DNA of 64,000 nt, taken from assembly GCA_021785655.1 (NCBI GenBank), contig JAJYET010000003.1, positions 34,937 through 98,936 of the forward strand. The letters run 5' to 3'. The DNA is from a bacterium (GTDB lineage Bacteria; Chloroflexota; Dormibacteria; Aeolococcales; Bog-877). Below the pieces are notes generated by a model, which did no database searches, was not told where the DNA came from, and saw only the letters and a program-made list of their open reading frames with translations. Position numbers and translations under genes: made by a program. Position 1 is the stretch's first letter, and each line of letters begins with the position of its first letter. Positions 9,503 to 38,797 of this stretch are shown piece after piece.

Positions 9503-10741
9503 GTGCGATTCATCTCCGCCTTTCGGCTGGCGGCCCCTTTGCGGTCGAGGGACTACCGACTGCTCTGGAGCGCCAACCTGATCTCCCAGCTCGGTGACGG
9601 AGTCACGACGGTGGCCTTGGCGCTGGAGGCCCTGAGGCTGGATCCAGCTCCATCCGGTCTCGCCGCGGTGCTGGCGGCGCGCACCATCCCCGCGGTCGCC
9701 CTGGCTCTGCTTGGCGGGGTGGTGGCGGATCGCCTGCCGCGCCGGACCAGCCTTCTGGCGGCCGACGTGGTCAGGGGTCTCGCGGTGGGCCTGGTGGCAG
9801 GACTGGTGCTCTTGGCGGCCATCAACGTCTGGGGCCTAGCCGCCATGGCGGTGGTGTTCGGAATAGCGGACGCCTTCGGCGGGCCCGCCCAGACGGCGAT
9901 CCTGCCGGAGGTGGTGTCGGCTGACTCCCTGACGGCGGCCAACGCCCTTAACAGCACGACCTCCCAGCTCTCGGTGAACCTTGTCGGCCCGGCCCTGGGT
10001 GGCGTGGCGGCGGCGGCCGTCGGAGTCGCCGGCTCGTTCGCCTTCGATGCCGCCACCTTCGTCGTCTCGGCTGGGCTGACCGCCGCGGTCCAGACTCGGC
10101 AACGACCGCATGGTGAGCGCACCACCGTGGTCCGGGAGGCGCTCCAGGGCCTGCGCTACATCGCGTCGAGGCGCTGGCTCTTCATCCTGTTGGTGGGGGC
10201 CGCGCTGGCCAACCTGACCGGCCTCGGGCCGTACACGGTCCTGCTTCCGACCCTGGTCCGGCACGTGCTGCGGGCTGGCCCGGTGGCCCTCGGCCTCGTG
10301 TACGGGGCTGGAGGTGCGGCGGGGGTGGTGGCTTCCCTGCTGGCTGCAAGGCTCGGGGAGCCCAAACACCTGTTGGAGACGATGTGGGCCGCGTACGGTC
10401 TCTCCGGCCTCATGGTGGTGGCCCTCTCCCAGGCCCCGGACCCGTTTGCTGCTGGAGCCCTTTCCGCGGCCGCTGCCGGCCTCGTGGTGTACGGCGATGT
10501 GCTCTACTTCACCCGCCTGCAGCGCTCGGTACCCGCCGCACTCTTGGGTCGGGTATCTTCCGCTTCCTTCGTCATGGTGATGACCCTGACGCCGGTGGGC
10601 ATGGTCCTCGGGGGGGTGCTGGGAGGCGCCATCGGGGTACGAGCGACGCTGGCACTGAGCGGAGTCCTCTCAGCGCTGTGCGCACTGGCACTCCTGATCC
10701 CCGGAGCCCGCGACGTCGAGGCGCTGCCTTCATCGGGCTAG
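9503..10741 (+). CDS. MFS transporter (EntS/YbdA-like efflux family)
   Basis: The 412-aa ORF has 12 predicted TM segments. N-terminal RLLWSANLISQLGDGVTTVALAL is typical of the MFS_3 / enterobactin-exporter-like family. GTG start. Confidence 0.8.
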   Translation: MRFISAFRLAAPLRSRDYRLLWSANLISQLGDGVTTVALALEALRLDPAPSGLAAVLAARTIPAVALALLGGVVADRLPRRTSLLAADVVRGLAVGLVAGLVLLAAINVWGLAAMAVVFGIADAFGGPAQTAILPEVVSADSLTAANALNSTTSQLSVNLVGPALGGVAAAAVGVAGSFAFDAATFVVSAGLTAAVQTRQRPHGERTTVVREALQGLRYIASRRWLFILLVGAALANLTGLGPYTVLLPTLVRHVLRAGPVALGLVYGAGGAAGVVASLLAARLGEPKHLLETMWAAYGLSGLMVVALSQAPDPFAAGALSAAAAGLVVYGDVLYFTRLQRSVPAALLGRVSSASFVMVMTLTPVGMVLGGVLGGAIGVRATLALSGVLSALCALALLIPGARDVEALPSSG

Positions 10742-10950
10742 AGTCAGCGGAACCCTCCTCGGTGTTCCCCGAGCCCGGGCCCGGGGGAGGCGGGGGCCAG
10801 GGCTTGTGCCCGTGGCCGTGAGGTCCTGATAAGAGACCTTATCGTGTGCTGCGAGGACTCCCACCCCAAAGGCGCCTCAACCACTCGCCCGGGGCGGAAA
10901 GCCGGTCCGCCGCTTGCCAAAGCCAGGCCGCCCGCCTACGATCCCTGCAG

Positions 10951-18940: not shown

Positions 18941-19224
18941 GCGAGGCGGACGACTGGCCACTCTGGGAGGTCTTCCTGCGAGGAAGGCGGGGTCTCTCGC
19001 ACCAACATGTGGGGTCACTTCACGCCCCCGATCCGGAGCTGGCTCTGCAGAACGCCCGCGATCTGTACACCCGGAGAGGTGAGGGGGTCTCCATCTGGGT
19101 GGTCCGATCCACAGAGGTACACGCCTCTGATCCCGACGACCAAGGGCCGTTGTTTGATCCACCCGCGGACAAAGCCTATCGCCACCCCACCTTCTACAAG
19201 GTGCCCGAGGACCTGCACCTTTGA
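18937..19224 (+). CDS. paaB: 1,2-phenylacetyl-CoA epoxidase subunit B
   Basis: [50 protein letters not shown]...RHPTFY is near-identical in layout to E. coli PaaB (95 aa). The GTG start overlaps the paaA stop (GTGA). Confidence 0.85.
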
Positions 19225-19997: not shown

Positions 19998-20463
19998 GGA
20001 CCTGGCCCAGCGGCTGGCCGCCGACGTGCCAGATCCCGAGCTCCCCTTCCTCACGCTGGGGGATCTGGGGATCCTCCGCCGGGTGGAGGTGGATCTCGAG
20101 GGCACGGTTAGGGTGGTGCTGACCCCCACGTACTCGGGATGTCCCGCTGTCAGCCATATGGCCAAGGAGGTCCGGCGCACCCTGATGGACGCGGGATTCC
20201 ATTCGGTCCAGGTGGACACCGAGTTGTCACCGGCCTGGAGCACCGATCGACTCGGTCCGAACGCCAGGGCCAAGTTGGAGGCCATGGAGATAGCCCCTCC
20301 CCCACCCCCGGCCGCAGCTCCGGTCGCGCTCACCCTCAAGTGCCCGCACTGTGGGTCGCTGCGGACCAGAGAGCTGAGTCACTTCGGCTCAACCGCCTGC
20401 AAGTCGCTCTGGCGGTGTCAGAATTGCAGCGAGCCCTTCGAGCACTTCAAGGCGCTGCGGTGA
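19984..20463 (+). CDS. paaD: Phenylacetate-CoA oxygenase subunit PaaD (DUF59/MIP18-like, with C-terminal Cys cluster)
   Basis: LTLGDLGILRRVEVD...VVLTPTYSGCPA (SufT/PaaD-like) plus C-terminal CPHCGS...CQNCSEPF. The ATG overlaps the paaC end by 14 nt. Confidence 0.8.
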   Translation: MPPGRDLAQRLAADVPDPELPFLTLGDLGILRRVEVDLEGTVRVVLTPTYSGCPAVSHMAKEVRRTLMDAGFHSVQVDTELSPAWSTDRLGPNARAKLEAMEIAPPPPPAAAPVALTLKCPHCGSLRTRELSHFGSTACKSLWRCQNCSEPFEHFKALR

Positions 20464-20471
20464 TAGCTCCC

Positions 20472-21563: not shown

Positions 21564-21686
21564 CGGCGAGGGGCTGCGCCACGGAGCCCAGGTGTAATCC
21601 GGGGGGCGGCCGGAGGAGTCCCGATGGGATCATAGGACCGTTCCCGTGGAACCAGGTCCACGACGCCCAGCTCTGGAGGGCCCCAG

Positions 21687-22982
21687 GTGAATACTGGCAT
21701 CGCCGATCTTAGGGCGCGAGAGATTCTTGACTCGCGCGGCAATCCCACCGTGGAGGTCGAGGCCTTTCTGGAAGGCGGTGCCATGGCTCGAGCGGCGGTG
21801 CCGTCCGGGGCCTCGACGGGAAGCAAGGAGGCGGTCGAACTTCGAGACGGGGAGCAGGGACGCTACGGGGGCAAGGGCGTCCGGCGGGCCCTCGCCGAAG
21901 TCCGGGGTTCGATCCTCCCTGCGCTGCGCGGGATGGACGCCCGCCACCAGGCCCAAATCGACCAGACTCTGATCGACCTTGACGGCACTCCCAACAAGGG
22001 ACGGATCGGCGCCAACGTCATCCTCGGAGTCTCGCTCGCCTGTGCCCGGGCCGCGGCTCAAGCCGGCGGCCTTCCCCTCTATCGGTACCTGGGCGGGGTG
22101 GGCGCCAACCGCCTGCCGGTGCCGATGATGAACATCCTCAACGGGGGGGTCCACGCCCACTGGCAGGGCGCCGACTTCCAGGAGTTCATGATCGCGCCCT
22201 ACGGGGCGCCCAACTTCGCCGAGGCGCTGCGGTGGGGCTCGGAAGTCTACCGGGCGCTGCAGTCAGAGCTGGTCGCCCGGGAGATGTCCGTGGGGGTCGG
22301 GGACGAGGGCGGCTTCGCGCCCAGGGTAGGGTCCAACCGGGAGCCCCTGGACCTCATCATGGCCGCCGTGGAGAGGGCCGGTCTCCGGCCCGGTCCCGAT
22401 GTGGGGATCGCCATGGACCCGGCCTCCAGCGAGTTTCACCGAAACGGTCGCTACCACCTGCGCCGAGACGGCCTGCAGCTCGGCTCCGAGGAGATGGCCG
22501 CCTACTACGCCGAGCTGGTCGCTGAATATCCGATCTGCGTCCTGGAGGACGGCCTGGCCGAGGACGACTGGGATGGCTGGAAGGCCTTGAACCGGCTCAT
22601 CGGGCCGACCACCGAGCTGGTGGGCGATGACCTCTTCTGCACCAACCCCGCGCTCATCCAGCGGGGGATCGACGAGGACGTCGCCAACGCCGCTCTCATC
22701 AAGCTGAACCAGATCGGCACCCTGTCGGAGACCGTGGCCGCCACGCGGCTGGCGCAGTTCCACGGCTGGGGCGCCTTCGTCTCCCATCGCTCGGGAGAGA
22801 CCGTGGACAGCTTCATCGCCGACCTGACTGTGGGGCTGGACACCGGCCATCTGAAGTCGGGCGCCCCATCCCGGGGCGAGCGGGTGGAGAAGTACAACCA
22901 GCTCCTGCGGATCGAGGAGGAGCTGGGCCCCCAGGCTCGGTTCGCGGGCAAGGCGGCGTTCTCGCGCCCAGTGCGCTTCTAG
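21687..22982 (+). CDS. eno: Enolase (phosphopyruvate hydratase)
   Basis: IADLRAREILDSRGNPTVEVEAFLEGGAMARAAVPSGASTGSKEAVELRD is the canonical enolase N-terminus. 431 aa. Confidence 0.9.
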   Translation: MNTGIADLRAREILDSRGNPTVEVEAFLEGGAMARAAVPSGASTGSKEAVELRDGEQGRYGGKGVRRALAEVRGSILPALRGMDARHQAQIDQTLIDLDGTPNKGRIGANVILGVSLACARAAAQAGGLPLYRYLGGVGANRLPVPMMNILNGGVHAHWQGADFQEFMIAPYGAPNFAEALRWGSEVYRALQSELVAREMSVGVGDEGGFAPRVGSNREPLDLIMAAVERAGLRPGPDVGIAMDPASSEFHRNGRYHLRRDGLQLGSEEMAAYYAELVAEYPICVLEDGLAEDDWDGWKALNRLIGPTTELVGDDLFCTNPALIQRGIDEDVANAALIKLNQIGTLSETVAATRLAQFHGWGAFVSHRSGETVDSFIADLTVGLDTGHLKSGAPSRGERVEKYNQLLRIEEELGPQARFAGKAAFSRPVRF

Positions 22983-23008
22983 GGACAGGGGCGCACGGTG
23001 CCCCTGGG

Positions 23009-23989
23009 TCAGCCGAAGAGCCGCCGCAGCCGGTACCGGTGCCGGGCGTAAACGTAGGCGACGAGTCCGGCGGCGGTGGCCACTCCCTGGTCCGCCACCC
23101 GCTGCATCAGGGCCACCGCCGTGGCCGGTGCCGGAGGCAACCCGGCCACGATGAGGATCCCGGCGAAGGTCGCCTCAGAGGCCCCAAGGCCTCCGGGGAT
23201 GAGGCTGATCGCCCCGCCGATGCTGGCGACCGCGTAGACCGAGGCCGCCTCGGGCCAGCTCAACCGCCCGGGGGCCAGGGCGCTGAGCACGAGCCAGAAC
23301 GCCGTGCTCATGGCCATCACCTGGGCCAGGCTGATGAAGGACCAGCCCAGGGTGTCAGGCCGGTGGAGCAGCTCCACCGTCTCGGCGTGCAGCTCGTCCA
23401 GGGGGTCGAGCAGCCGACGTACCCCCAGGATGCGCTCCCCCGTGGCGTGCAGGACGTGGAAAAGCGAGGGCACGGTGAGCACGGCCAGTGCCAACCCGGC
23501 CACCACCACCGCGACGACCGGGATCGCCGGATTGACTTGGAACTCGAACAGCCCTGGCACCGCCACCACCACCAGGAGCAGCCCATAGATCAACTCCTGG
23601 ACCGTGACGGTGGCCAGGACGTCGCTGAATGGCGCCCGGGCCTGGCGCGCGGCCAGCACCACCCGGGTCAGCTCCCCCAGCGGCAGCAGCGTCGTCACTT
23701 GGCCAGCGAGGTTGATCGAGATCGTCTCGCCCCAGCTGAGGCGCACCCCAACATCCCGAAGAAGGAACTGCCAGCGCACTCCCTGAAGGGTGTAGTACCC
23801 GACCGAGCAGGCGATGATCGCCGGGATCAGGAGCAGGTCGAAGTGCTCGAGCGAGCTGCCCAACTTGCTGGGGTTGATGAGCAGGATCAGGGCGGCCACG
23901 CCGGCGAGCCCCACCACGCCGGCGAGCCATGTGCCCAGGCGACGGCGCCCCCGCTGCCGGCCGCCGTCGTCCAACCTCATGGGCTGCAT
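23009..23989 (-). CDS. Flippase-like / lysylphosphatidylglycerol-synthase TM-region family membrane protein (UPF0104)
   Basis: Polytopic membrane protein with the LPGS_2/UPF0104-type layout (LGTWLAGVVGLAGVAALILL..., many TM helices). Start set to an internal ATG (MQPMRLDD), because the first ~50 ORF-track codons are Arg/Pro-rich. Confidence 0.6.
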   Translation of the reverse strand: MQPMRLDDGGRQRGRRRLGTWLAGVVGLAGVAALILLINPSKLGSSLEHFDLLLIPAIIACSVGYYTLQGVRWQFLLRDVGVRLSWGETISINLAGQVTTLLPLGELTRVVLAARQARAPFSDVLATVTVQELIYGLLLVVVAVPGLFEFQVNPAIPVVAVVVAGLALAVLTVPSLFHVLHATGERILGVRRLLDPLDELHAETVELLHRPDTLGWSFISLAQVMAMSTAFWLVLSALAPGRLSWPEAASVYAVASIGGAISLIPGGLGASEATFAGILIVAGLPPAPATAVALMQRVADQGVATAAGLVAYVYARHRYRLRRLFG

Positions 23990-24099
23990 GGTCCTCCCCG
24001 GCCCGACTGCCTCCTCCATCCTTGGTCGCCTCGTAGCGTACGAAGACGAAGCGGTGGCCGCCACCGCCCCGGGGTGGGGCAGCTGACTATGCTCCCTTC

Positions 24100-25104
24100 G
24101 TGGACTCCGCCCCCTGGCCGCTCCTGCCGGCCGACCTGGAGGATGCACGCCGGCGGCTCGAAGGCCGGGTCCACCGGACCCCCCTGTTTCACTCCCGGCT
24201 CCTGGACGAGAGGGTCGGCCGAACCGTGTGGCTGAAGGCGGAGAACCTGCAACGCGCGGGATCGTTCAAGGCCAGAGGCGCGTTCAACGCCGTTCTCGCG
24301 GGCCTCGAGGCCGGCGACAGGCGCGGCGTCCTGGCCGTCTCCTCAGGCAACCACGGCCAGGCGGTGGCTCTGGCGGCGGGCGAACTCGGCCTGCCCGCCA
24401 CGATCGTGATGCCCGAAAACAGCTCCCAGGTGAAGGTCACCGCGGTGCGGGCATACAACGCCCGGGTGGTGACTGCCGGGGTGACAGGGCAAAACCGTGA
24501 GCAGGTGGCCGCGGACCTCGCTGCCAGGCAAGGGCTGCGGCTGATCCACCCCCACGACGATCCCCTGGTGATGGCCGGCCAGTCCACCGTGGCGATGGAG
24601 CTGGCAGAGCAGCTGGCCGAGCTGGGAGCCCGGCCCTGGGCCGTCCTGGCGCCCCTGGGGGGCGGGGGGCTCCTCTCCGGGCTATGCCTCGGAGTGGCGA
24701 GCTGGCTGCCCGGGGTCCATGTCCTGGGGGTCGAGCCCGAGACCGCCGACGATGGCGCCAGGTCCTTCTACTCGGGCGACCTGGTCACCCTGGACGAGGT
24801 GCCCCAGACCGCGGCAGACGGGGTGCGCACCCTTCACCTGGGCCGGCGCTGCTGGGAGGTGATCCGGGCCCGGGCCCAGGGGGTCCTGACCGTCGGCGAG
24901 ACCGAGCTGGCCGAGGCCGCGTACTGGCTGTTCACCCGCCTCAAGCTCGTCGTGGAGCCCACCGGAGCGCTGGCCGTCGCCGCCCTCCTGCATGAGCGAC
25001 CCGAGATCCCGGCGGGAATGGAGGCGGTGTGCATCCTGAGCGGTGGCAACTGCCTGCCGGAGCAGCTCGCAGAGTTCACGGCGAGTCGTAGCCACCCGGT
25101 CTGA
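24100..25104 (+). CDS. PLP-dependent threonine/serine dehydratase (IlvA/TdcB catalytic domain only, no ACT domain)
   Basis: WLKAENLQRAGSFKARGAFNAV (PLP-lysine motif), VSSGNHGQAVALAAG, SGGNC. 334 aa. Confidence 0.75.
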   Translation: MDSAPWPLLPADLEDARRRLEGRVHRTPLFHSRLLDERVGRTVWLKAENLQRAGSFKARGAFNAVLAGLEAGDRRGVLAVSSGNHGQAVALAAGELGLPATIVMPENSSQVKVTAVRAYNARVVTAGVTGQNREQVAADLAARQGLRLIHPHDDPLVMAGQSTVAMELAEQLAELGARPWAVLAPLGGGGLLSGLCLGVASWLPGVHVLGVEPETADDGARSFYSGDLVTLDEVPQTAADGVRTLHLGRRCWEVIRARAQGVLTVGETELAEAAYWLFTRLKLVVEPTGALAVAALLHERPEIPAGMEAVCILSGGNCLPEQLAEFTASRSHPV

Positions 25105-27826: not shown

Positions 27827-28972
27827 ATGGCCACCGATAGTGGTGCCGACCTGCTGATACCACAGGATCTGCTTCCTGGCGATGGGCGGTTCGGGTGTGG
27901 CCCCTCTAAGGTACCGGCTACGGCCGTCGCCAGACTGGCCGAGGCCGCACCTCTGCTCCTCGGCACCAGTCACCGTCAGCCCCCGGTGAAACAGCTGGTG
28001 GGCCGCCTCCGTTCCGGGATCAGCCAGTTGTTCTCCCTGCCGGAGGGGTACGAGGTGGCTCTGGGGAATGGTGGTGCAAGTCTCTTCTGGGATCTGGCGA
28101 CCCTCTGTCTGATCGAGCGCCGCAGCCAGCACCTGGTTTTCGGGGAGTTTTCATCCAAGTTCGCCCAGATCGTGCAAAACGCTCCTCACCTGGCGCCTCC
28201 GGAGGTGATCGAAAGCGAGCCGGGCACCTGCCCCCAGCCGCACTCCGATGAGGACCTGGATGCCTACTGCCTCACCCACAACGAGACCTCCACAGGGGTC
28301 CAGGGCGAGGTTCGCCGGATTGGCTCACCGGGGCAGTTGGTTCTGGTCGACGGCACCTCAGCGGCGGGAGGGCTGCCACTGGACGCCGGCTCCGTCGACG
28401 CCTACTACTTCTCCCCGCAGAAGTGCTTTGCCTCGGACGGCGGTCTCTGGGTCGCGCTCCTCTCGCCCGCCGCGATCGAGCGCTCCGACCGACTCGGGAG
28501 CACATCCCGGTGGATTCCGAGCTCCCTAGATCTGAACCTGGCGCTCCAGAACTCGCGCCAGGACCAGACCTACAATACCCCCGCCGTGGCGACTCTGTTT
28601 CTCTTCGCCCAGCAGGTGGAGTGGATCCTTGACCAGGGCGGGTTGTCCTGGGCGGCCGCCCGCTGCCGCCAGTCGGCGAGCATCGTGTACGGGTGGGCGG
28701 ACCGGGCAGATTACGCAACACCCTTCGTCCAGGATCCGAACCGGCGCAGCCAGGTGGTCGCCACCATCGACCTCTCCCCCGAGGTCCCCGCCGGCGCAGT
28801 TTCCAAGGTTCTCAGGCGAAACGGGATCGTGGACATCGACGGCTACCGCAAGCTGGGACGCAACCAGTTGCGCATCGGGCTCTTCCCCGCCGTCGAGCCG
28901 GAGGACGCCGCCCGCCTCACCCGGGCGATCGACTGGGTGGCCGAACGGATCGGTGTCGCAGATCACGCTTAG
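27827..28972 (+). CDS. serC: Phosphoserine aminotransferase, actinobacterial SerC type
   Basis: DGRFGCGPSKVPA...FGTSHRQPPVKQLVGRLRSGISQLFSLPEGYEVALGNGGA...NETSTGV...YYFSPQKCFASDGGLW is collinear with mycobacterial SerC (DGRFGSGPSKV...). Confidence 0.85.
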   Translation: MATDSGADLLIPQDLLPGDGRFGCGPSKVPATAVARLAEAAPLLLGTSHRQPPVKQLVGRLRSGISQLFSLPEGYEVALGNGGASLFWDLATLCLIERRSQHLVFGEFSSKFAQIVQNAPHLAPPEVIESEPGTCPQPHSDEDLDAYCLTHNETSTGVQGEVRRIGSPGQLVLVDGTSAAGGLPLDAGSVDAYYFSPQKCFASDGGLWVALLSPAAIERSDRLGSTSRWIPSSLDLNLALQNSRQDQTYNTPAVATLFLFAQQVEWILDQGGLSWAAARCRQSASIVYGWADRADYATPFVQDPNRRSQVVATIDLSPEVPAGAVSKVLRRNGIVDIDGYRKLGRNQLRIGLFPAVEPEDAARLTRAIDWVAERIGVADHA

Positions 28973-29041: not shown

Positions 29042-30001
29042 GTGATGCTCGCCGACGACTTCGGCGTAGGCGACAAGGTCGAGGAGGCATTCCTTCGGCT
29101 GGGCTCAGGCGACCTCGAGGTCCTGCGCCCCTTGCTTCGGGAGCGGGCCGAGGCCCAGGTTGGAGATGCGGTGCTTGCCGGGCTGGTGGCCCAGCAGGTG
29201 CTGCTCGACCTCTCCGCGCGCACCCTGCTGGACTTTGCGTCCCCGGGCGACCTCGCCGCGTGGCTGGCGATTCGGATCCCCCAGACGGCGGCCCTGTTCC
29301 TCGGTGCCCTGCCCCCCCTGTCGGCTGCCCCCACCCCAGCCCCATCGGGCAGCCTGCGGACGGTGTGGTCCCGGGTCTGGGCGGCGGCCGTCACCCTTCC
29401 CACGCTGGCGGCGGCGACCGCCGTGGCGTCGATCGGATCCGCCTCCGCCGCGGTCCTTCTCACGGCGACCATCGCCTCGTCTCCGGCCGCCCTGGGGCCC
29501 GCGCCGTCGCTGGTCACCCCCCTTCCCATTGCCTCCAGCCCCCGGGTGCTTCCGGCACCCACCCCCCAGGCCGTCCCCGCCCCCCGCAGCGTCCCAACCA
29601 CCACTCCCCCGCGATCCGCGTCCGTTCCCGCCGCCCTCGCACCGGTCTCGGTTTCCAGCCCCCCTCCGGCCACTTCTCCGCACACCACGCCGACTCCCCC
29701 GACCACGCCACCCACACCACCCCCACCATCCCCACCGCCCACCTCCACTCCACCTCCGGCCCCCACCCCCTCGCCTGGCTGTGGGAGCCAGGACCAGGGG
29801 CCGCCCGGGTGCCCCTGCACGGGCGGTGACGACCACGACGACGGCGGACCGCCAGGCTGTCACTGCCCGGTGAACGGCGACGGGTGCCACCACCATCATC
29901 ACGACCATCCGCCGTGCGACCCGCCGGCTGGCGGGTCACCCAATCCTGCCCCTGATCCGGGCGCGGCATCCCCTGGACATGCGGATCGCCCTGGCAGCTG
30001 A
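29042..30001 (+). CDS. Hypothetical protein: N-terminal alpha domain, hydrophobic segment, Pro/Thr/Ser-rich linker, Cys/His-rich C-terminal tail
   Basis: 319-aa ORF with high GC3 throughout. The tail is GCGSQDQGPPGCPCTGGDDHDDGGPPGCHCPVNGDGCHHHHHDHPPCDPP. The stop overlaps the start of the downstream recombinase gene by 23 nt. Confidence 0.45.
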   Translation: MMLADDFGVGDKVEEAFLRLGSGDLEVLRPLLRERAEAQVGDAVLAGLVAQQVLLDLSARTLLDFASPGDLAAWLAIRIPQTAALFLGALPPLSAAPTPAPSGSLRTVWSRVWAAAVTLPTLAAATAVASIGSASAAVLLTATIASSPAALGPAPSLVTPLPIASSPRVLPAPTPQAVPAPRSVPTTTPPRSASVPAALAPVSVSSPPPATSPHTTPTPPTTPPTPPPPSPPPTSTPPPAPTPSPGCGSQDQGPPGCPCTGGDDHDDGGPPGCHCPVNGDGCHHHHHDHPPCDPPAGGSPNPAPDPGAASPGHADRPGS

Positions 30002-30902
30002 CGAGTACCTGACCTACCTGGCGGTAGACAGGGCCAGGAGCCCGCAGACCCTGCGGGCCTACGGGCTAGACCTGCAGCGGGCCCTCGAATTCTGGTCGGG
30101 ATTGAGCCGGCGGCCCGAGCAGGTCTCAGAGCTCGACCGCGACCTGGTTCGCGCCTATCAGCGCCACCTGGGTGAGAGCGGCCTGGCCCTGAGCTCCCGG
30201 GCCCGCCGCCTCCAGGCGCTCCGCAGCTTTCTGCACCACTGCGAGCGGGAGGGGTGGACCGACCAGGACCTCGCCGCCCACATCGACATCCCCAAGGTGT
30301 CGGCTCCACTCCCCAAGCCGCTCAGCACCGCCGATACGCGGCGCCTTCTGGCGTCGCTCCCCGTCGCCGCCGAGGAGGAGCTGCGCGACCGGGCCCTGGT
30401 CCACTTCCTGGTCAGCTCGGGGTGCCGCATCTCCGAGGCCCTGGCCCTCGACCGCAGTGACATCAACCCCGAGGGCCGGCTGGTGGTGCGGGGAAAGGGC
30501 TCGAAGGAGCGCATGGTGGAGCTGACTCCGGCGGCCCTGGACGCCATTTCCAGTTACCTGGAGGCCCGCCACGATCGGGAATCCGCGCTCTTCCTCAATT
30601 ACGACCGTCGCTCCAAGGCCCGCGGCGGTCGGCGCCTCACGGCCGCCGGCGCTCGCCACGTGATCCGCCGCCTGCGCCGGGAGCTGGGGGTGGAGGGGCT
30701 GCGCTCACCCCACGTCCTGCGTCACACCACGGCCACCGAACTGCTGACCATCACCGGCAACGTCCGGCTGGTCCAGGAGGTGCTGGGGCACGCCAACCTC
30801 AACACGATGCAGGGGTACACCAAGGTGGTGGACCAGTCGCGCCGGGCCGCCTACCGGGAGCTGGCGCGCCGGCTCGAGCCCTCGCTGCCGCCTACGGAGT
30901 AG
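29979..30902 (+). CDS. Tyrosine site-specific recombinase, XerC/XerD family
   Basis: N-terminal SAM-like core-binding domain (EYLTYLAVDRARSPQTLRAYGLDLQRALEF). The catalytic domain has R...HVLRHTTATELL...GHANLNTMQGYTKV (R-H-R-Y signature). 307 aa. Confidence 0.8.
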   Translation: MRIALAADEYLTYLAVDRARSPQTLRAYGLDLQRALEFWSGLSRRPEQVSELDRDLVRAYQRHLGESGLALSSRARRLQALRSFLHHCEREGWTDQDLAAHIDIPKVSAPLPKPLSTADTRRLLASLPVAAEEELRDRALVHFLVSSGCRISEALALDRSDINPEGRLVVRGKGSKERMVELTPAALDAISSYLEARHDRESALFLNYDRRSKARGGRRLTAAGARHVIRRLRRELGVEGLRSPHVLRHTTATELLTITGNVRLVQEVLGHANLNTMQGYTKVVDQSRRAAYRELARRLEPSLPPTE

Positions 30903-31632
30903 CCCCGGCCGCCGGAAGAGGGAACTTGAAGGTGCCCAGGAACAGCTGGAAGTCGGCCCCGGTGGTGGCGGCGCCGCCCTTGGCCACGATCAGGAAGGCC
31001 AGCCCCGGGGAAGCCTGGAAGGCCACTGCCCCCAGGTAGCCATTGGCGGCCGCGAAGGTGACCAGTGACGTGGTCACGCCGTACACGACGACCGCGGAAA
31101 CGCCGGAGGTGGCGGTGCCCGACGGGGCAGCGGGGGGGAGTTGCGCCGTGCTGGCCGCGGTGGTGACGGAGATCGACTCGCCACCGGGACCGTTGAAGTC
31201 GATCGCGCCGGTGGGAAGCTGGGCGAACTGCCACCCAGCGGGATAGAGGACCGACCAGTTGGAGCTGCCACCGGACTGGTAAGTCTGGAAGGAGGCGGTC
31301 GAGGTGTCCTCCGGATTGGAGGTCACCCATCCGGTGGCGGTGTTGCCCCTGACCTCCCACCAGCCTCCCCCGGCGGAGGTCTCGGAGACGATGGGCAGGG
31401 TGACCCCTTGGGAGATCACCTGGATCACGGGGGCCGTGGTGCTCGGCGCCGTCCGGAAGTTCACCCCGTCGGGAGCGATGACCGTGACCGAGGTCGGCGG
31501 GGGCGACGCGGACGGGGTCGGCGACGGCCGAGGTGACGGGCCAGCCGGCCGAGGGCTGCTGGCACCACACCCCGCTACCACCGCCGCCACCACTACCAAA
31601 AGCGTGCAGGTGACAGGGGCCCGCATGTGCAT
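30892..31632 (-). CDS. Lipoprotein with bacterial SH3 (SH3b) domain
   Basis: Signal peptide plus lipobox (LLVVVAAVVAGCGASSP), a Pro/Ser/Thr-rich linker, then VNFRTAPSTTAPVIQVISQGVTLPIVSETSAGGGWWEVRGNTATGWVTSN (SH3_3-like). Confidence 0.65.
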   Translation of the reverse strand: MHMRAPVTCTLLVVVAAVVAGCGASSPRPAGPSPRPSPTPSASPPPTSVTVIAPDGVNFRTAPSTTAPVIQVISQGVTLPIVSETSAGGGWWEVRGNTATGWVTSNPEDTSTASFQTYQSGGSSNWSVLYPAGWQFAQLPTGAIDFNGPGGESISVTTAASTAQLPPAAPSGTATSGVSAVVVYGVTTSLVTFAAANGYLGAVAFQASPGLAFLIVAKGGAATTGADFQLFLGTFKFPLPAAGATP

Positions 31633-31635
31633 AAC

Positions 31636-32472
31636 CTACTCGGATGTCTGCTCGGCTGCCGCGATCCGTTGGTGAAGCTCGGCGGCGGCCCTGCTGGCCG
31701 CCTCGGCGAAGTCTCGGCCCCTGGACGCCGCCGCCACCCCGCGGGACACCGAGATCAGGTAGGAGCCCGCAGTCCCGGCCAGTTCCCGGACACAGGCCTC
31801 CAGATCGCCGCCCTGGGCCCCGACCCCGGGAATGAGCAGGGGAAGGCCAGGGGCCTCCTCCCGCACTCGGCCCAGCTCCTGCGGCCAGGTGGCCCCCACA
31901 ACGAGTCCCGCGGTGCCCGCCGGAGGCTCCCTGTCCCACATCGCCACGGCCTTGGCGACCTGGATGTAGAGGGGAGCGCCCCCTCCGCCGACCGGCAGGT
32001 CCTGGAAGTCCGCGGCGCCGGGATTGCTGGTCCGACAGAGCACGAAGGCGAGGCGGTCGGCCCGGTCCAGGAAGGGGCTGAGCGCGTCTCTCCCCAGGTA
32101 GGGATTCACCGTGCAGGCGTCCGCTCCCAGCCCGTCGAAGATGGCGCGGGCGTAGGCGGCGGCGGTGCTGCCGATGTCCCCCCGCTTGGCGTCTACCACC
32201 ACCAGCGCTCTCCGGCCCGCCGCCTGCACCACTTCCCGAAGGAGTTCCCAGCCCTCATGCCCCAGTTGCTCGAAGAACGCCGAATTGGGCTTGAAGGCCG
32301 CCGCTTGGTCGGCAGTGGCCTCGATCAGCTCTAGGCAGAATCGCCGCACCGCGCCCACACCAACCCCGAGGTGGGGCGGCAGGGAAGCGGGCTCCGGGTC
32401 GATGCCGACACACAGTCGGGATGTGGAGGCAGCCAGCCGGTCTCGGAACGGTTCCCGCGATCCCCCTACCAC
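31636..32472 (-). CDS. pyrF: Orotidine 5'-phosphate decarboxylase (type 2, long form)
   Basis: LCVGIDPEPASLP...VVVDAKRGDIGSTAAAYARAIF...ADACTVNPYLGRDAL matches type-2 OMP decarboxylase. GTG start. Confidence 0.8.
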   Translation of the reverse strand: MVGGSREPFRDRLAASTSRLCVGIDPEPASLPPHLGVGVGAVRRFCLELIEATADQAAAFKPNSAFFEQLGHEGWELLREVVQAAGRRALVVVDAKRGDIGSTAAAYARAIFDGLGADACTVNPYLGRDALSPFLDRADRLAFVLCRTSNPGAADFQDLPVGGGGAPLYIQVAKAVAMWDREPPAGTAGLVVGATWPQELGRVREEAPGLPLLIPGVGAQGGDLEACVRELAGTAGSYLISVSRGVAAASRGRDFAEAASRAAAELHQRIAAAEQTSE

Positions 32473-32660
32473 GAAGTCCGGGAGGTACTGGTCTGCGCTG
32501 CCCCCGGGGCCTGGGGGGCGTACGGAATCTGAATCCGGTCATGCTGAGATTGCATGCAGCCGGAGCAGACGGAGCTGATCTCCCCATCGAGGAGCACCGC
32601 TGCCAGCCGGTAGATCGGGAACTCCCGGCCGCAGTTGGCGCAGCGCCGCATCCAGGGCAT
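32466..32660 (-). CDS. Small zinc-ribbon protein (CxxC-x21-CxxC), 64 aa
   Basis: MPWMRRCANCGREFPIYRLAAVLLDGEISSVCSGC... The ATG at 32660 is preceded by GAGGAGG at -9, GC3 is high, and the stop overlaps the pyrF GTG by 7 nt. Confidence 0.45.
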   Translation of the reverse strand: MPWMRRCANCGREFPIYRLAAVLLDGEISSVCSGCMQSQHDRIQIPYAPQAPGAAQTSTSRTSW

Positions 32661-32728: not shown

Positions 32729-32805
32729 CGGGGAGTGGCGCAGATGGTTAGCGCACCAGTCTGGGGGACTGGGGGTCGCAGGTTCGAGTCCTGTCTCCCC
32801 GACCA
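32729..32805 (+). tRNA. tRNA-Pro (anticodon GGG)
   Basis: Hand-folded cloverleaf with acceptor CGGGGAG/CTCCCCG, D-arm GCGC-AGATGGTTA-GCGC, anticodon stem CCAGT/ACTGG with loop CUGGGGG (GGG at 34-36, G37), T-arm GCAGG-TTCGAGT-CCTGT, discriminator A and an encoded CCA. Confidence 0.85.
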
Positions 32806-33127
32806 CTCCCAAGACCCCCCTCTTCGGGCGGGGCCTGACTAGCTCGACAGCGCCACAGGTGAGGCCCGAACGAGGTCAAATCCGCCGAGGCCGCGTGACC
32901 ACAGGGCGAACTGGATGGCGTCCCTACTTCCGAACGGCTCGGCGCTGACACCCCGGGCACCTCGCTGGTGGTTTTCGGCACATCCCCGTCCGTCTGGTGA
33001 CCGCGGAGCCAGCCGCGAAGAGGCGAAGGCGACGTCCGACCGCAAGCTTTCTCGTCCCCCTTGCCGCGTGCCATGATTTCTTCGACGCCGGCGGCGTGGT
33101 TCGCACCGTTGAGACGGTCCACAACAA

Positions 33128-34084
33128 TTGAGGTCCCCACCCATGACAACGGATAGCGCGTCCGGCCACTCCGCGCCCTTCTTCGGTTCTCAGCGCGACT
33201 TCTGGTGGAACGAGGACTTCGTCGGATTGGTCGTTGAGCGCCTGGGCCTTACCGGCACGCGATCAGTTCTGGACGTGGGCTGCGGGTTGGGCCACTGGTC
33301 TCGGGTGCTCTCCCGGGTGCTCCCCGCGGTTTCGGAGATCACGGGCATCGACCCAGAAGGAGCATGGGTCAGGCAGGCGCGCCTGGTTGATGCGGACCGT
33401 GGGCGGCCAATACAGGCTTCCGTGGACCGGGGATGGGGGGAGCGGCTTCCCTACCCCGACGCGCGCTTCGACCTCGTCACCTGCCAGACCGTCCTGATCC
33501 ATGTGGCGGACGTACCGACGGTACTGCGCGAGATGTGCCGGGTTGTTCAGCCCGGTGGAACGGTGCTCGTGGCCGAGCCTAACAACTTGGCCGGCCAGCT
33601 CGTTCGCTCGAGCGTCTCGGCCCAGAACGACCCGGAGGCACTCGCCTCCTCGATCCACTTCTACGCCACGTGTGAAGCCGGAAAGATCAAGGTTGGAGAA
33701 GGAAACACCTCCGTCGGAGATCTCCTGCCTGGCTATTTCGCCGAGGCGGGGCTCGATCTCGTGGGGTGCTACCTCTCGGACAAGTCGTCGCCGCTGTGGC
33801 CGCCGTACTCCTCTCCTGAGCAGGCCGCTTTGGTACGGGCGATCGAAGCTGCAGCCGAAGACGAGCGATGTCCGTGGAACAGGGACGAGGCTCGCCGATA
33901 CTTTCTCGCTGGTGGCGGCAGTGAGGCTGCGTTTGCGGAAGCCTGGTCGACGAGGGTCCGGGCGGTTCAGGCGGACTTAGCCGCGGTTCAGAGCGGATCG
34001 TTCTGGTCGGGTGGCGGGCAACTGATGTACCTCGTCGGGGGCCAGAAGCGCCCGACGGTAAAGCAGCCGACTACCGAGAGTTGA
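33128..34084 (+). CDS. Class I SAM-dependent methyltransferase
   Basis: VLDVGCGLGHWSRVL (motif I, GxGxG), DLVTCQTVLIHVAD, VVQPGGTVLVAEPN. The start could be ATG 33143 (MTTDSASG). Confidence 0.7.
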   Translation: MRSPPMTTDSASGHSAPFFGSQRDFWWNEDFVGLVVERLGLTGTRSVLDVGCGLGHWSRVLSRVLPAVSEITGIDPEGAWVRQARLVDADRGRPIQASVDRGWGERLPYPDARFDLVTCQTVLIHVADVPTVLREMCRVVQPGGTVLVAEPNNLAGQLVRSSVSAQNDPEALASSIHFYATCEAGKIKVGEGNTSVGDLLPGYFAEAGLDLVGCYLSDKSSPLWPPYSSPEQAALVRAIEAAAEDERCPWNRDEARRYFLAGGGSEAAFAEAWSTRVRAVQADLAAVQSGSFWSGGGQLMYLVGGQKRPTVKQPTTES

Positions 34085-34489
34085 GGGGAGTCCCGAAGAA
34101 AGCTCTACATCCCCGCGCCGCCCATCTGAGCTCTTCGTCCACCTTGGCCAGGCATTCCTGCTCCTGCAGCTCCCGCGGCTTGAAGCCCCCAGCGGGTACC
34201 GAGGGACCCAGGTTCCGCTGCCTCTCCACGTCCCCTGGCCCGGGACCGACGGCCTTCAAGGAGCCCGCTGCCTGCACCCTCTTGAGCCAGCATGCCCATG
34301 AGAGGGCTTCCTCGCAGGGCGTTGACGCCGCAGTGAAGTCGCCGGGCACCATACCCGTCAGCAGACCGCAGGCCGCCAGGCTGAGGCCCCGCCATTGACC
34401 ACGATACTTCGGTTATTGGACCGGCGGGATGCATTCGAGGAGGTTGCCTGCGGGCGTGGTCCACCCGCAGGGGGTAGGAGGGCTGTGGG

Positions 34490-34873
34490 TTGCCAAGGTA
34501 TCTGATCTCCTTCAACGCCCGGGCGATGGACCACATCCCCGAGGAGGACATGCCTTCTGTGGCAGCGGCGGCACACGCCGTAATCCAGGAGGCGCTGAGC
34601 GCGGGCGTCTACATCTTCAGCGGAGGGCTCGAGAACCAGAGAGCGAGCATCGTGGGCTCTGACGGGATGGTGACCGAGGGGCCGCACCCGGAGGCCATCG
34701 GCGGAGCGGCGATCGTCGACGTTTCCGCACACGATGAAGCGCTCGAGTGGGCCGGGAAGATCGCGGTCGCCTGTCGCTGCCCGCAGGAAGTCAGGGCGTT
34801 TGCGCAAGACCCCGAGCTCGCCCAGATGCTCCGCCAAGTTGAAACCCCAAGGCGACCTCCCGGCGACGTTTGA
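34490..34873 (+). CDS. YciI-like (DGPF/YCII-related) small protein
   Basis: MPRYLISFNARAMDHIPEEDMPSVAAAAHAVIQEALSAGVYIFSGGLE... is 127 aa. The TTG start is preceded by AGGAGG at -7. Confidence 0.6.
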   Translation: MPRYLISFNARAMDHIPEEDMPSVAAAAHAVIQEALSAGVYIFSGGLENQRASIVGSDGMVTEGPHPEAIGGAAIVDVSAHDEALEWAGKIAVACRCPQEVRAFAQDPELAQMLRQVETPRRPPGDV

Positions 34874-35647
34874 TCCCTTGTGACCTGCCACTCTCTCCCA
34901 GGCTGGCCCCACCTGGATCACCTCGAGGCGACGCCCAGGGTCAGCGGGGCCACCAGCGCGATCAAGTCGGCGACCCACCCACCACGAAGTGAGGCCGAAC
35001 CCGGGCGCCGCGATTGGTGCGGTGCTGCGGGGGCCCGCCACCGATTCCGGCCAGCAGGGATTCGCGGTGACGGCCCCAACTATAGCCCCCATGTGGCTCC
35101 CCGCCAGACGACGACACTCTGACTCCGCTGGGGCTGCGGCGCACCGGATCCTTCAAGTCCGGTTCTCGGCCCCGACAGCACGACAGCCCCGCCAGCTTGA
35201 GCGCGACCCCGGCTCCGGTTCCTCCGGCTGCCGAGGAGCCGCGCCCGGTACGCGCCACCTGGCGGGCAGTGCCACTGCATCTCAGTGCCCCGAGCTGCTC
35301 CCGGATTGGTGTCTACTCGCCCCGTCGCCCAGGCAGGACCGGCGCCCCACCGTCCAGACCGGGCCGTCCGCACTTTCACCCTGGCCAACTGGACCGGGTG
35401 GGTCCCGCTCCGTGTTGCCGGGCTCGGCGTCGGCCATGGGTTGCGCCGACTCCCTGTTCCAGCTACACTCGCGGCCACAACCAAGGGCGAGCCTACAGGT
35501 CGGGTGCGGACGGCGCCACTCTGGGGAGAGGCAAGGTCACGCGGAATCAGTGAGCCATCGGATCCACCAATCAGCCGGCCGCCCCCTGCTGGTGCAGGCG
35601 TCGGGGACGGAGCCGGTGCCATCAGTGTGTTCGTGGAGGGAAACACC

Positions 35648-37381
35648 ATGCACCTGTTAGATCGTCGAATGCGAATTCTGACCCGGCTGGGGGCCATTCT
35701 CGGAGCTGTGGCAGTGGTTTCCGCGGCCCAGTTGAGCGCAGGACCAGCTGTCGCTGCCGGGGGCGGATGGGTTAAGGCGCCCGCACAGGGTGAGCTGGAC
35801 TGCAACGGGTACAGCACGGTGCAGAAGTCGATCAAAGTCACGCTCCCCTGCACCGATCCTCACGGAGCCAACGGGTCACGCTTCTTCGACAACGGCTACT
35901 ACGTGGGCCACGACGAGCCCAACCTCCGGTTCGTGTCCAACGCCCCCGGATCCGGAGACAACGTCACCTGGACCCAGACGCTGCCCGTGGACCCGACATC
36001 CACCCCAACCGTCAGCACGCCGGGCAGCGACGTGACCCACTTCTTTGAGCTCTCCGTGGCGCCCTGGTTCTCCATGGCCATCTGCGACCCCAACTCCTAC
36101 CCGCAGACGCCGTGCACGCCCATGAGCAACTCCAATGCCCCCTCTGGCACCTACCCAGGAGGCGGAAGCGCGTTCATGGAGCTGCAGTTCTACCCGCCCG
36201 GGTTTGCCCCCTTCGTGAACAGCATCAGCTGCAACATCCCAGGCAGCACCACCCCGCTCACCGACGGGAACGGGGGATGGTGCGCGGCGCTCACCATCGA
36301 CAGTCTGGAGTGCACCAACCAGTTCAATTACTGCAACCCCGCGTGCACCGAGCCGGTCAACTTCGCCTTCATCCAGAAGAACGGCGTGCCCACCGGCCCC
36401 CCCAGCCCCCAGAGCGCCAACCTCTTGACCTTCACCCCTAACTCCCAAACCCTGTTCTTCTCTCCCGGGGATACGATCACGACCCAAATCTTCGACAACC
36501 CAAGACTGAAGGCGCTCGAGGCCATAGTCACGGACGACACGACGCACCAGAGCGGGTACATGGTGGCGGACGCCGGCAACGGCTTCCAGAACACCAACTA
36601 CCAGACCTGCGCCGGCACGCCGTTCAACTTCCAGCCCGAGTACAACTCCGCGGCCGCACCCAACTTCGTGCCGTGGGCGGCCTTGACGACCGACATCAGC
36701 ACCACCTTCGAGATCGGCCACTTCACTCCCTGCACCTCGCTGAGCAACCCTGTACGCGGGACGAGCGGGTACAACGTATGCAATGGTGCCTACGAGTCCG
36801 CCACCACACGGGACGGAGCCGTGGCACCGGCAACCCACACGCCGATCGAGGCATCGAAGGGAGATGGGCCCTGCTTCCCTGCGGGCGACACGCACGGCCT
36901 CGGGGGATCGGGAGGCGAGACGACGGCCCCCAACCTGGTGACCGGCTGCGACAACTTCAACAACGGAGGCGACCTGGACTACGATGGCACACCCTACTGG
37001 CCGGACTGGCCCACCGGGACCAGCCCCACCAGCTTCCCCTCCACCATGGTGATCCAGCCTCCTGGTTTCGGGAAGAGGTCGCAGGGGTACAGCCAGGTCG
37101 AGTTCGAGACTGACAACCCAGCCTCAGACTTCCTCTGCAACGTCAGCACCGGGCTGGGCTGCAGCGTCCCACCCCCCGGCCCGGGGAAGTTCTACCCGTA
37201 CTGGAGCCAGGTCTCGGGCGGCGGCTCAGCCTGCGTCTGGGAGTTCGGCAACATCGGAGGGACTGACTTCGGAGGAGCCGCGCAGTATGGCTCGGCCGGC
37301 GCCTCCGGCAACGGTTACAACGGCACCGACGGCAGCTCGCTGATGCCCCTCACCTCTGGGGGGTGCGTGGCCAGCTCCTGA
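35648..37381 (+). CDS. Secreted cysteine-rich hypothetical protein (577 aa) with signal peptide, possibly Tat-type
   Basis: ATG at 35648 is preceded by GGAGGG. MHLLDRRMRILTRLGAILGAVAVVSAAQLSAGPAVAA is the signal peptide. The mature part is N/G/T/S/P/F/Y-rich with about 30 Cys and very few Lys/Arg/Glu. I recognised no domain. The ORF-track start at 35285 is an upstream extension. Confidence 0.6.
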   Translation: MHLLDRRMRILTRLGAILGAVAVVSAAQLSAGPAVAAGGGWVKAPAQGELDCNGYSTVQKSIKVTLPCTDPHGANGSRFFDNGYYVGHDEPNLRFVSNAPGSGDNVTWTQTLPVDPTSTPTVSTPGSDVTHFFELSVAPWFSMAICDPNSYPQTPCTPMSNSNAPSGTYPGGGSAFMELQFYPPGFAPFVNSISCNIPGSTTPLTDGNGGWCAALTIDSLECTNQFNYCNPACTEPVNFAFIQKNGVPTGPPSPQSANLLTFTPNSQTLFFSPGDTITTQIFDNPRLKALEAIVTDDTTHQSGYMVADAGNGFQNTNYQTCAGTPFNFQPEYNSAAAPNFVPWAALTTDISTTFEIGHFTPCTSLSNPVRGTSGYNVCNGAYESATTRDGAVAPATHTPIEASKGDGPCFPAGDTHGLGGSGGETTAPNLVTGCDNFNNGGDLDYDGTPYWPDWPTGTSPTSFPSTMVIQPPGFGKRSQGYSQVEFETDNPASDFLCNVSTGLGCSVPPPGPGKFYPYWSQVSGGGSACVWEFGNIGGTDFGGAAQYGSAGASGNGYNGTDGSSLMPLTSGGCVASS

Positions 37382-37399
37382 GGCCGGTTACCGACTGAG

Positions 37400-37434
37400 C
37401 CCCCGGGGCGGGTGCCCAAGGCGCCCGCCCCGGG
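37400..37434. terminator. GC-rich hairpin CCCCCGGGGCGGGTGCC-CAAG-GCGCCCGCCCCGGG, candidate bidirectional terminator
   Basis: A 14-bp near-perfect stem with a 4-nt loop lies 18 nt after the secreted-protein stop and 38 nt before the convergent der stop. It has no U-tract, which is common in high-GC genomes. Confidence 0.4.
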
Positions 37435-37471
37435 ATTCGCCGCTGTCCATGGGCCCCGTCCCCGAAGTGGA

Positions 37472-38797
37472 TTACCCGGACCCGGTGGACTTCCTGGTCA
37501 AGAGCCGGATCGGGACGCCGGCGAACCCGAACCGCTGCCGGAGCTGATTTTCCAAGTAGCGGGAGTAGCTGAAGTGCAGCAGCTCGGGATCGTTGACGAA
37601 GAGGACGAAGGTGGGTACCTGGCTTCTGGCCTGGGTGGCGTAGTACAGGCGCAGGCGGCGCCCCGACTTTCCGCTCGGGGGCGGCCTTCGCTCCATCATC
37701 GCGCCGAAGGCACCGTTGAGTTCCGGGGTGGGGATCCGGGCGGCCCTTGCCCGGGCCAGGCTGAAGATCGCCGGTACCACGCGCTGCAGCCCCCGACCGG
37801 TGAGCGCGCTGACGTAGAGGAACGGGGTGCCCGGGGCGAAGTCGTAGGCCGCGCGGAGCTCCCGCAGGAGCGCCCGGTCCGATCGCTCATCGTGGTCCAA
37901 GAGGTCCCACTTGTTCAGGACCACCAGGGTGGCGGCCCCGGCTTCCCGCGCCTGCCCGGCGATGTGGCGGTCCTGGGCCAGGAACGGCTTCTGGGCATCC
38001 ACCACCACCATGGCAACGTCGGCCCGCTCCACCGCCCTCAGGGCCCGCACCAAGCTGTAGAACTCCACATCCTTGGTCACCCCCGGGCGGCGGATTCCCG
38101 CCGTGTCGACCAGTAGAAGGGGACCCTCCTCGGTCTCCAACCAGGTGTCCACCGGATCCCGGGTGGTGCCGGAGACCGCGCTCACCAAGGATCGGTCCTG
38201 CCCAAGGAGGGAGTTGAGGATCGAGGACTTGCCGACGTTGGGACGGCCCACGATGGCGCAGCGCACCATCTCCCCCTGTGGAGCCTCCTCCTCAGCCACC
38301 AGGGGCAGCCGGTCGAGAAGCAGGTCCAGCAGGTCACCCGTGCCCACTCCGGAGATGGCACTCACCGGGACCGGGTCGCCCAACCCGAGCCGATAGAGGT
38401 CATTCAGCTCCAGGGAGTCGGGCCTCCCCTCGCTCTTGTTGGCGACGAGCAGGACCGGCTGAGGGGCGCGCCGGAGCTGGTCCACAACGTCCAGGTCGGC
38501 CGCGGTGATACCCTCCCGCTGATCGATGAGGAGGCAGATCACGTCCGCCTGCTCGATGGCGGCCTGGGCCTGGGCCTGGGTGTTGGCGGGCAGGTCAAGC
38601 TCCGGACCGTCCCGGACCACCCTGTCCAGGCCGGCGGTGTCGACCAGTCCAAATGTCCTCCCCCCCCACTCGACACGCCCGTAGATGCGGTCCCGGGTGA
38701 GGCCCGGCTGAGGGGAGACGATCGCCCGGCGCTGGCCGGTGAGCCGGTTGAAGAGCGTGGACTTGCCCACGTTGGGCCTTCCCACCAGCGCCACCAA
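37472..38797 (-). CDS. der: Ribosome-associated GTPase Der (EngA)
   Basis: Two tandem GTPase domains (LVALVGRPNVGKSTLFNRL and CAIVGRPNVGKSSILNSL) plus a KH-like C-terminus. The start was moved to TTG/GTG at 38797/38794 (LVALVG). The ORF-track N-terminus overlaps gpmI and is His/Arg/Gly-rich. Confidence 0.8.
   Translation of the reverse strand: MVALVGRPNVGKSTLFNRLTGQRRAIVSPQPGLTRDRIYGRVEWGGRTFGLVDTAGLDRVVRDGPELDLPANTQAQAQAAIEQADVICLLIDQREGITAADLDVVDQLRRAPQPVLLVANKSEGRPDSLELNDLYRLGLGDPVPVSAISGVGTGDLLDLLLDRLPLVAEEEAPQGEMVRCAIVGRPNVGKSSILNSLLGQDRSLVSAVSGTTRDPVDTWLETEEGPLLLVDTAGIRRPGVTKDVEFYSLVRALRAVERADVAMVVVDAQKPFLAQDRHIAGQAREAGAATLVVLNKWDLLDHDERSDRALLRELRAAYDFAPGTPFLYVSALTGRGLQRVVPAIFSLARARAARIPTPELNGAFGAMMERRPPPSGKSGRRLRLYYATQARSQVPTFVLFVNDPELLHFSYSRYLENQLRQRFGFAGVPIRLLTRKSTGSG

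Follow-up and report, generated by a model that had tools for sequence, protein, structure and literature searches.

A Predicted Housekeeping Xer Recombinase and a Candidate dif Site near a Putative Replication Terminus in Candidatus Dormibacterota

Introduction

The XerC/XerD-dif system of Escherichia coli and most bacteria uses a pair of recombinases, and single-recombinase Xer systems have been described as XerS/difSL in streptococci and lactococci, XerH/difH in epsilon-proteobacteria, XerL/dif in Legionellales, and XerA/dif in Archaea (PMC5357621, PMC9765430). The dif sites of bacteria and Archaea share an 11-6-11 geometry with ATAA and TTAT in the inner arms (PMC5357621), and their inner arms are typically conserved, with outer arms and genetic surroundings that vary (Carnoy & Roten, PMC2731167). 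They also follow the shift point of the GC skew, xerC genes tending to lie near dif and xerD genes mostly near the origin (PMC3025954). In this study, we analyzed a 64-kb stretch of DNA (contig JAJYET010000003.1 of assembly GCA_021785655.1, 64,000 nucleotides, hereafter the window) that carries a complete gene for a Xer-family tyrosine recombinase, xer, and, 19.1 kb upstream of this gene, a 28-bp candidate dif site.

We propose that xer is the chromosomal, vertically inherited housekeeping Xer of a Candidatus Dormibacterota lineage with a role in dimer resolution, a reading to which we give a probability of roughly three in four and in which the dimer-resolution function is deduced from family membership. 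The 28-bp site is probably dif and the putative target of the window Xer. Compared with the described systems, XerCD/dif is the closest in geometry, and the single-recombinase systems are the closest in having a lineage-specific recombinase and a non-canonical site. No paper on Xer in this phylum came up in a literature search that combined Dormibacterota with XerC.

Results and Discussion

The window Xer belongs to a Dormibacterota-specific clade

Like XerC and XerD, the window Xer consists of two domains, a SAM-like N-domain (Phage_int_SAM_1, PF02899, residues 8-92, 60 bits) and a catalytic Phage_integrase domain (PF00589, residues 121-285, 106 bits), which together with its length place it within the architecture and size of about 300 aa of the broad XerC/XerD/XerA family. 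The catalytic residues R150, K173, H245, R248, H271, and Y280 are all present, in agreement with the original prediction of a complete enzyme, are invariant in an alignment of 17 sequences of relatives (A1), and line up with the motifs of the XerD structure 1a0p and of the E. coli XerC and XerD proteins. In a comparison with the PDB, the best match was E. coli XerD (1a0p, E=7e-34, full-length alignment), followed by the XerA proteins of Pyrococcus and Thermoplasma, a second place that recalls the archaeal system, whose dif also has the 11-6-11 arrangement (PMC5357621); XerH (5jjv) was distant at 48 bits. All close homologs (65-97% identity) come from metagenome-assembled genomes (MAGs) of Candidatus Dormibacterota.

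The window Xer was then scored against the NCBIfam models. The top model was XerC (TIGR02224), with 227.3 bits against a cut-off of 335.15, followed by XerD (TIGR02225, 209 bits, cut-off 329.6), the generic Xer subfamily (205 bits, cut-off 279), and archaeal XerA (NF040815, 166.8 bits, cut-off 220), and the score was lower still for XerS (NF003462, 84 bits, cut-off 267), so that by sequence the protein belongs to none of XerS, XerA, and XerH. The models of the integron integrase IntI (TIGR02249, 69 bits against 265) and of the FimB/FimE-like tyrosine DNA invertases (42.8 bits against 222) were far below their cut-offs. The orthologs of the window Xer likewise stayed under the cut-offs, at 192-228 bits with the XerC model and 167-205 bits with the XerD model, and proteins with 51-57% identity to it gave the same pattern.

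Compared with the E. coli proteins (sequences from NC_000913.3), the window Xer has 35% identity to XerC (125 bits) and 33% to XerD (127 bits), and the score between XerC and XerD is 186 bits. The Dormibacterota Xer proteins form three subclades according to their identity to the window protein: 64-97% (group 1), 51-57% (group 2), and 40-48% (group 3). In a simple neighbor-joining tree (no bootstraps), the three cluster together, and E. coli XerC and XerD share a branch that does not include them. These sequence comparisons place the window Xer in a Dormibacterota-specific clade that is equidistant from XerC and XerD and is neither of the two, which raises the question, for the whole phylum, of whether one or two recombinases are at work.

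The xer gene is a conserved core gene

Ortholog loci (numbered here with the prefix L) were fetched from long contigs and GTDB species representatives. In group 1, the order aspC(-) serC(+) orfX(+) xer(+) SH3(-) pyrF(-) zn64(-) tRNA-Pro(+) was found in every locus with enough flank; synteny was followed in about 18 loci (L002-L005, L008-L022, L089) with 64-97% identity of the Xer protein. Each of the 80 best GTDB loci comes from a different assembly, and no two of the three subclades are found together, which indicates that the subclades replace one another. The gene has a GC content of 0.711 and a GC content at third codon positions (GC3) of 0.90, equal to or above those of its neighbors in a window of about 70% GC. 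From the conserved order, the native GC3, and the absence of any repeated assembly among the 80 loci, we conclude that xer is a vertically inherited core gene and is not carried by an element. The original prediction had placed the gene, correctly, between serC and a lipoprotein/pyrF region (Table 1) but had called this position outside the usual chromosomal context. That description does not stand, the context being kept in all close relatives; we know of no fixed context for Xer genes in general. In group 2 the neighborhood is a different one, acyltransferase-xer-patatin.

Of the earlier suggestion that the gene could be the housekeeping XerC/D, the housekeeping part is supported by the synteny of about 18 loci, the native composition, the lack of co-occurrence of the subclades, and the candidate dif at the skew switch, and the assignment to XerC/D is not, no specific clustering with XerC or XerD having been found. 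The signs that the original prediction had named for an ordinary Xer were therefore found in part: conserved synteny and a candidate dif, without that clustering.

Table 1: Features of the window that bear on the Xer system and its surroundings.
Feature	Position	Strand	Remarks
MFS_3 transporter gene	9503..10741		Left neighbor of candidate dif
Candidate dif, 28 bp	10822-10849	+	11-6-11: GGTCCTGATAA GAGACC TTATCGTGTGC; intergenic, just 3' of the MFS_3 transporter gene
GC-skew switch, putative replication terminus	10850..10856	.	Cumulative G-C maximum at 10856; best change point at 10850
serC	27827..28972	+	TIGR01366, 524 bits
orfX, Pro/Thr-rich protein with Cys/His-rich tail	29042..30001	+	Open reading frame (ORF); 319 aa; stop overlaps xer start by 23 nt
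xer, Xer-family tyrosine recombinase, complete	29979..30902	+	ORF; 307 aa; PF02899 + PF00589; orthologs 64-97% identity, same gene order
SH3_3-domain lipoprotein-like gene, conserved neighbor	30892..31632	-	Convergent with xer; overlap 30892-30902, 11 nt
pyrF	31636..32472	-	
zn64, zinc-ribbon-like 64-aa ORF	32466-32660	-	Two CxxC pairs
tRNA-Pro(GGG), conserved landmark and integration hot spot, outside the Xer system	32729-32805	+	
Variable segment, tRNA-Pro to der	32806..37471	.	Methyltransferase, 127-aa, and 698-aa proteins; content differs between relatives

A candidate dif site at the skew switch

A scan of the window and of all loci for the universal inner-arm signature ATAA-N6-TTAT gave a single match in the 64-kb window, the 28-bp site of Table 1. 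The original prediction had seen no nearby dif-associated partners of the recombinase, which is probably wrong in view of this dif-like 28-mer, 19 kb upstream and at the GC-skew maximum of the window. In pattern form the motif is GNTNNNGAKAAGRGACCTTATCGNNNNC, and its consensus across the loci is G-T--cGATAA GrGACC TTATCG----C. Similar to the dif of XerCD, the site has the 11-6-11 arrangement with ATAA/TTAT inner arms, is intergenic, and lies at the GC-skew switch. Similar to those of single-recombinase systems, it is non-canonical and has two arms that are alike (G-T--CGATAA), the left one being G-T---GAtAA and the right one, reverse-complemented, G----CGATAA. The right arm (TTATCG) is invariant and the better conserved of the two, and the left one varies between GATAA, CATAA, TATAA, and GAGAA. 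At 28 bp, the site also differs from difSL and difH, which have 31-40 bp and another consensus.

The core GAtAAGrGACCTTATCG was found once per locus in eight loci (L002, L003, L004, L017, L018, L088, L089, L090) and also beside glgE in three metagenome contigs (L130, L197, L210). It always has the same orientation, with mak-treS-glgE on one side and serC-xer on the other, and in the intergenic alignment, where mean identity is 52%, it is the sole invariant block. When up to one mismatch was allowed, GATAA-N6-TTATC gave 20 matches in about 1.26 Mb of loci, for a chance estimate of about 2 (exact: about 0.04). The distance of 19.1 kb between xer and the site in the window is reduced to 7.4-8.8 kb in L089, L002, L004, and L018. 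The two share a chromosomal neighborhood, as in single-recombinase systems, and the window xer lies toward the terminus, like the xerC genes described earlier (PMC3025954). Unlike xerS/difSL and most xerH/difH, which form adjacent modules (PMC2731167), xer and the candidate dif of the window lineage are 7-19 kb apart.

On the plus strand, a change from positive to negative skew has the polarity of a terminus. In the window, the skew maximum and the change point are only 1-7 nt away from the 28-mer. Single loci of 20 kb were too noisy and became informative only after left-arm sequence had been added, which was done for three relatives by stitching loci around lexA and the MFS gene. To the left of the candidate dif, 11/11, 11/12, and 13/16 of the 2-kb bins then had positive skew, the mean skew to the right was negative, and the best change points were 177 nt, 3 kb, and 7 kb from the site. 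The heptamer GGGGTGG also changes strand here, lying on the plus strand in 12/15 cases to the left of the candidate dif and on the minus strand in 37/47 cases to the right; the same switch was seen in the close relative L090 and was not seen in L004 or L017. This polarity may be like that of FtsK-orienting polar sequences (KOPS) or may follow from the skew and from Pro codons; orfX, which is rich in Pro, also raises it, and we regard it as weak evidence.

The genes around the site vary, a setting that, with the conserved inner and variable outer arms, fits the description of dif (PMC2731167). The left neighbor is an MFS_1 gene, an MFS_3 gene, or an acetyltransferase gene. In L002, L004, and L089 the right neighbor is a short-chain dehydrogenase/reductase (SDR) gene; the window, L088, and L090 instead have a 13-kb insertion with paa genes among its contents. 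Such variation between genomes speaks against an operator that serves one particular gene. We also consider an RNA element unlikely, as the motif matched no Rfam family and its RNA fold is weak (z = -2.0). The insertion (window 10850-24100, about 13 kb, from the candidate dif to a PALP gene) encodes a TMEM164-like protein, a polyketide cyclase, a thioesterase, an AMP-ligase, a uracil phosphoribosyltransferase, a TetR protein, and paaABCD. It is absent in L089, L002, and L004, so that genomes differ in what they carry next to the putative terminus, and it showed no integrase.

According to what is known of the family (PMC5357621), the Xer would bind both arms of the 28-bp site, with its GATAA/TTATC core and 6-bp center GAGACC, and would bring two dif copies on a dimeric chromosome into synapsis. 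Strands would be exchanged across the 6-bp center by the R-K-H-R-H-Y active site, restoring chromosome monomers before division. We infer binding and cleavage at the site, dimer resolution, and the number of recombinases. If the assignment is right, the candidate dif and the terminus landmark could serve to orient or check Dormibacterota MAG assemblies and help to find dif-integrating elements. The recombinase is otherwise an ordinary housekeeping enzyme in a conserved core-gene neighborhood, and moderate interest is confined to the candidate dif and the possibility of a single-recombinase system.

Dif-like palindromes were seen elsewhere. At L068:7489-7516 there is a near-perfect palindromic site, ACTCCTGATAA TGTATC TTATCAGGAAC, 2.5 kb upstream of a 46%-identical group-3 Xer gene, and its arm TCCTGATAA equals the left arm of the window candidate. 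At L028:7829-7856, in group 2, GATAA CCCGGG TTATC with palindromic flanks lies 4 kb downstream of xer; it is the only one of its kind among about 50 group-2 loci and may be due to chance. Neither palindrome has orthologous sequence in other loci. The 16-mer core with extended (near-)symmetric arms, for example CTGCCCGATAA GGGACC TTATCGGGCAG, was also present in the unrelated metagenome contigs L206, L137, and L170, with no xer within the fetched flanks.

Alternative explanations

Several observations weigh against the proposal that xer and the 28-bp site form a housekeeping Xer/dif system. The protein reaches none of the curated Xer equivalog cut-offs. In place of the canonical XerD arm TTATGTnAAnT, which is conserved in many bacterial phyla, all copies of the site have TTATCGnnnnC as right arm, unlike XerCD sites; no canonical dif (TTATGTHAA and related patterns) was found in the 64-kb window, and GACCTTAT occurs in none of 641 published dif predictions. 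The central hexamer GAGACC is conserved across species, an uncommon trait for dif (PMC2731167), and no such site lies within 10 kb of the group-2 xer genes. In metagenome and viral scans, the 16-mer core gave mostly chance-like matches without arm symmetry; the informative metagenome matches are only L130/L210, L197, and perhaps L170, and no Xer gene was seen near the others in the fetched flanks. The GC skew is weak, and in 2/4 genomes its best change point is 3-7 kb off the site. A reading that we consider unlikely is one in which the Xer is a housekeeping enzyme and the 28-mer is a palindromic operator or another protein-binding site near the skew switch, the true dif being elsewhere. The shape of the conserved part would suit it, a short palindrome GATAAG-N4-CTTATC that includes the center, like the operator of a dimeric regulator, as would the many chance or unrelated 16-mer occurrences in metagenomes and the displaced change points of the two genomes. 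An operator would be hard to reconcile, however, with a motif that always points the same way between glgE and serC-xer while the genes on both sides change (SDR, Paa-cluster insertion, acetyltransferase, MFS_1 or MFS_3), that lies downstream of a gene 3' end and not in a promoter region, that is present once per locus, and that has the geometry and inner arms of bacterial and archaeal dif (PMC5357621).

With the 28-mer taken as dif, the number of recombinases has to be considered. The window Xer could be the XerC-like half of a XerC/XerD pair, with a divergent second Xer elsewhere, typically nearer the origin; the partner would bind the better-conserved right arm (TTATCG...) and the window Xer the variable left arm, a reading that is plausible if somewhat short of an even bet. 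XerCD is very widespread, XerC is the best NCBIfam model (227 against 209 bits), most xerC genes are found close to dif and most xerD genes close to the origin (PMC3025954), and unequal conservation, with an invariant right and a varying left arm, is the usual XerD/XerC asymmetry (PMC2731167). The protein is nevertheless equally distant from E. coli XerC and XerD (125 and 127 bits), falls outside their common branch in the simple tree, and would act on a site without the canonical XerD arm. No partner was found in an incomplete search of limited reach for paralogs: tblastn with the Xer gave no second Xer in the 64-kb window and, in about 1.2 Mb of related loci, turned up nothing but integrases of prophages or islands, and the scan of the genome collection used two peptide patterns specific to the Dormibacterota clade, which a distant paralog would escape. 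As far as seen, there is one clade-specific Xer per genome, as in single-recombinase systems; together with the equidistance from XerC and XerD and the similar, non-canonical arms, this favors a single enzyme. The odds that the Xer acts on both arms alone are about even, and we lean toward a single enzyme on account of a clade that is neither XerC nor XerD and a site without the canonical XerD arm. The more specific model, in which Dormibacterota resolve dimers with a single lineage-specific Xer, neither XerC nor XerD, on a non-canonical dif with a species-conserved central hexamer, can only be put forward tentatively and is somewhat doubtful. If true, it would be a further independent single-recombinase Xer/dif system beside XerS, XerH, XerL, and archaeal XerA, in an uncultured phylum.

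The tRNA-Pro hot spot is served by other integrases

The original prediction had also considered that the gene could be the remnant integrase of a mobile or invertible element, pointing to a tRNA-Pro 1.8 kb downstream (the distance is 1827 nt) and to an islet-like segment after it. Both features are real: the segment at 32.8-37.4 kb varies between relatives and has a slightly lower GC content, 0.667 against 0.70. In the window and in L009, the tRNA is followed by genes for a methyltransferase, a 127-aa protein, and a 698-aa protein, and in L004 by those for a DEAD helicase and a VTT-domain protein. In L002, L003, and L011 a tyrosine integrase gene stands directly after the tRNA; its product is just 28-30% identical to the Xer and, in L002 (12779-20942) and L003, is part of a prophage with HTH (helix-turn-helix), AAA_25, RusA, and terminase genes, the one in L011 being at 7455-8614. 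From the varying content and these integrases we conclude that tRNA-Pro(GGG) beside pyrF is a recurrent integration hot spot in the lineage, served by other recombinases and independent of xer.

That xer itself is a remnant or domesticated integrase, of the tRNA-Pro islet or of an inversion switch for neighboring genes, is very improbable. The nearby tRNA with its variable, lower-GC segment and the missed XerC and XerD cut-offs would suit such an origin, and the Xer shares the catalytic superfamily PF00589 with phage, integrative and conjugative element, and integron integrases and with the FimB/E invertases. Unlike these, it has a Xer-type SAM-like N-domain, and the integron and invertase models are far below cut-off. 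The gene is at the same place in all relatives, whatever comes after tRNA-Pro, it is separated from the tRNA by three conserved genes (SH3, pyrF, zn64), and the elements at the tRNA carry their own integrase. Unlike element integrases, it is fixed in core synteny and has no attachment (att) site or inverted-repeat flanks: the search of 27.5-38.5 kb for direct or inverted repeats gave at best about 70% identity over about 30 nt (inverted, about 35 nt) inside coding DNA, which is the level of chance, and no 11-mer or longer word of the tRNA or its 3' flank was repeated in direct orientation up to 41 kb, leaving the islet without a bounding repeat of the tRNA 3' end. Given the native GC3, the chance-level repeats, and the lack of a tRNA repeat downstream, the mobile-element and invertase readings are rejected and largely refuted. 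One repeat pair, 29954-29985 and 37733-37764, was dismissed as chance (about 70% over about 30 nt, in coding DNA of 70% GC).

Neighboring genes

The convergent overlap of xer with the SH3 gene, as originally described (Table 1), is 20-29 nt in the relatives L002 and L004. On the other side, orfX is probably co-transcribed with xer, given the overlap of its stop with the xer start. Its product has a conserved N-terminus of about 65 aa, a long low-complexity stretch rich in Pro, Thr, and Ser, and a Cys/His-rich tail (...GCHCPVNGDGCHHHHHDHPPC...), and it matched nothing in Pfam or NCBIfam. By tblastn, orfX was found at the same position in relatives, with 51-57% identity in the N-terminal 65 aa or so and 77% overall in L009. 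The orfX region is a local GC-skew trough. The small zn64 ORF between pyrF and tRNA-Pro is 67-97% identical in all relatives and has no family assignment.

At the left end of the window (1-7306, minus strand) are alpha-glucan genes for a maltokinase, TreS, and GlgE, which are syntenic in relatives. Left of mak-treS-glgE, the relatives have a beta-lactamase-like gene, lexA, hflX, miaA, mutL, and mutS, landmarks of the terminus-proximal left arm. In the left replication arm of L093, a transposase gene of the insertion sequence (IS) type (DDE_Tnp_1, 8116-9819) adjoins lexA and is absent there in L091 and L092.

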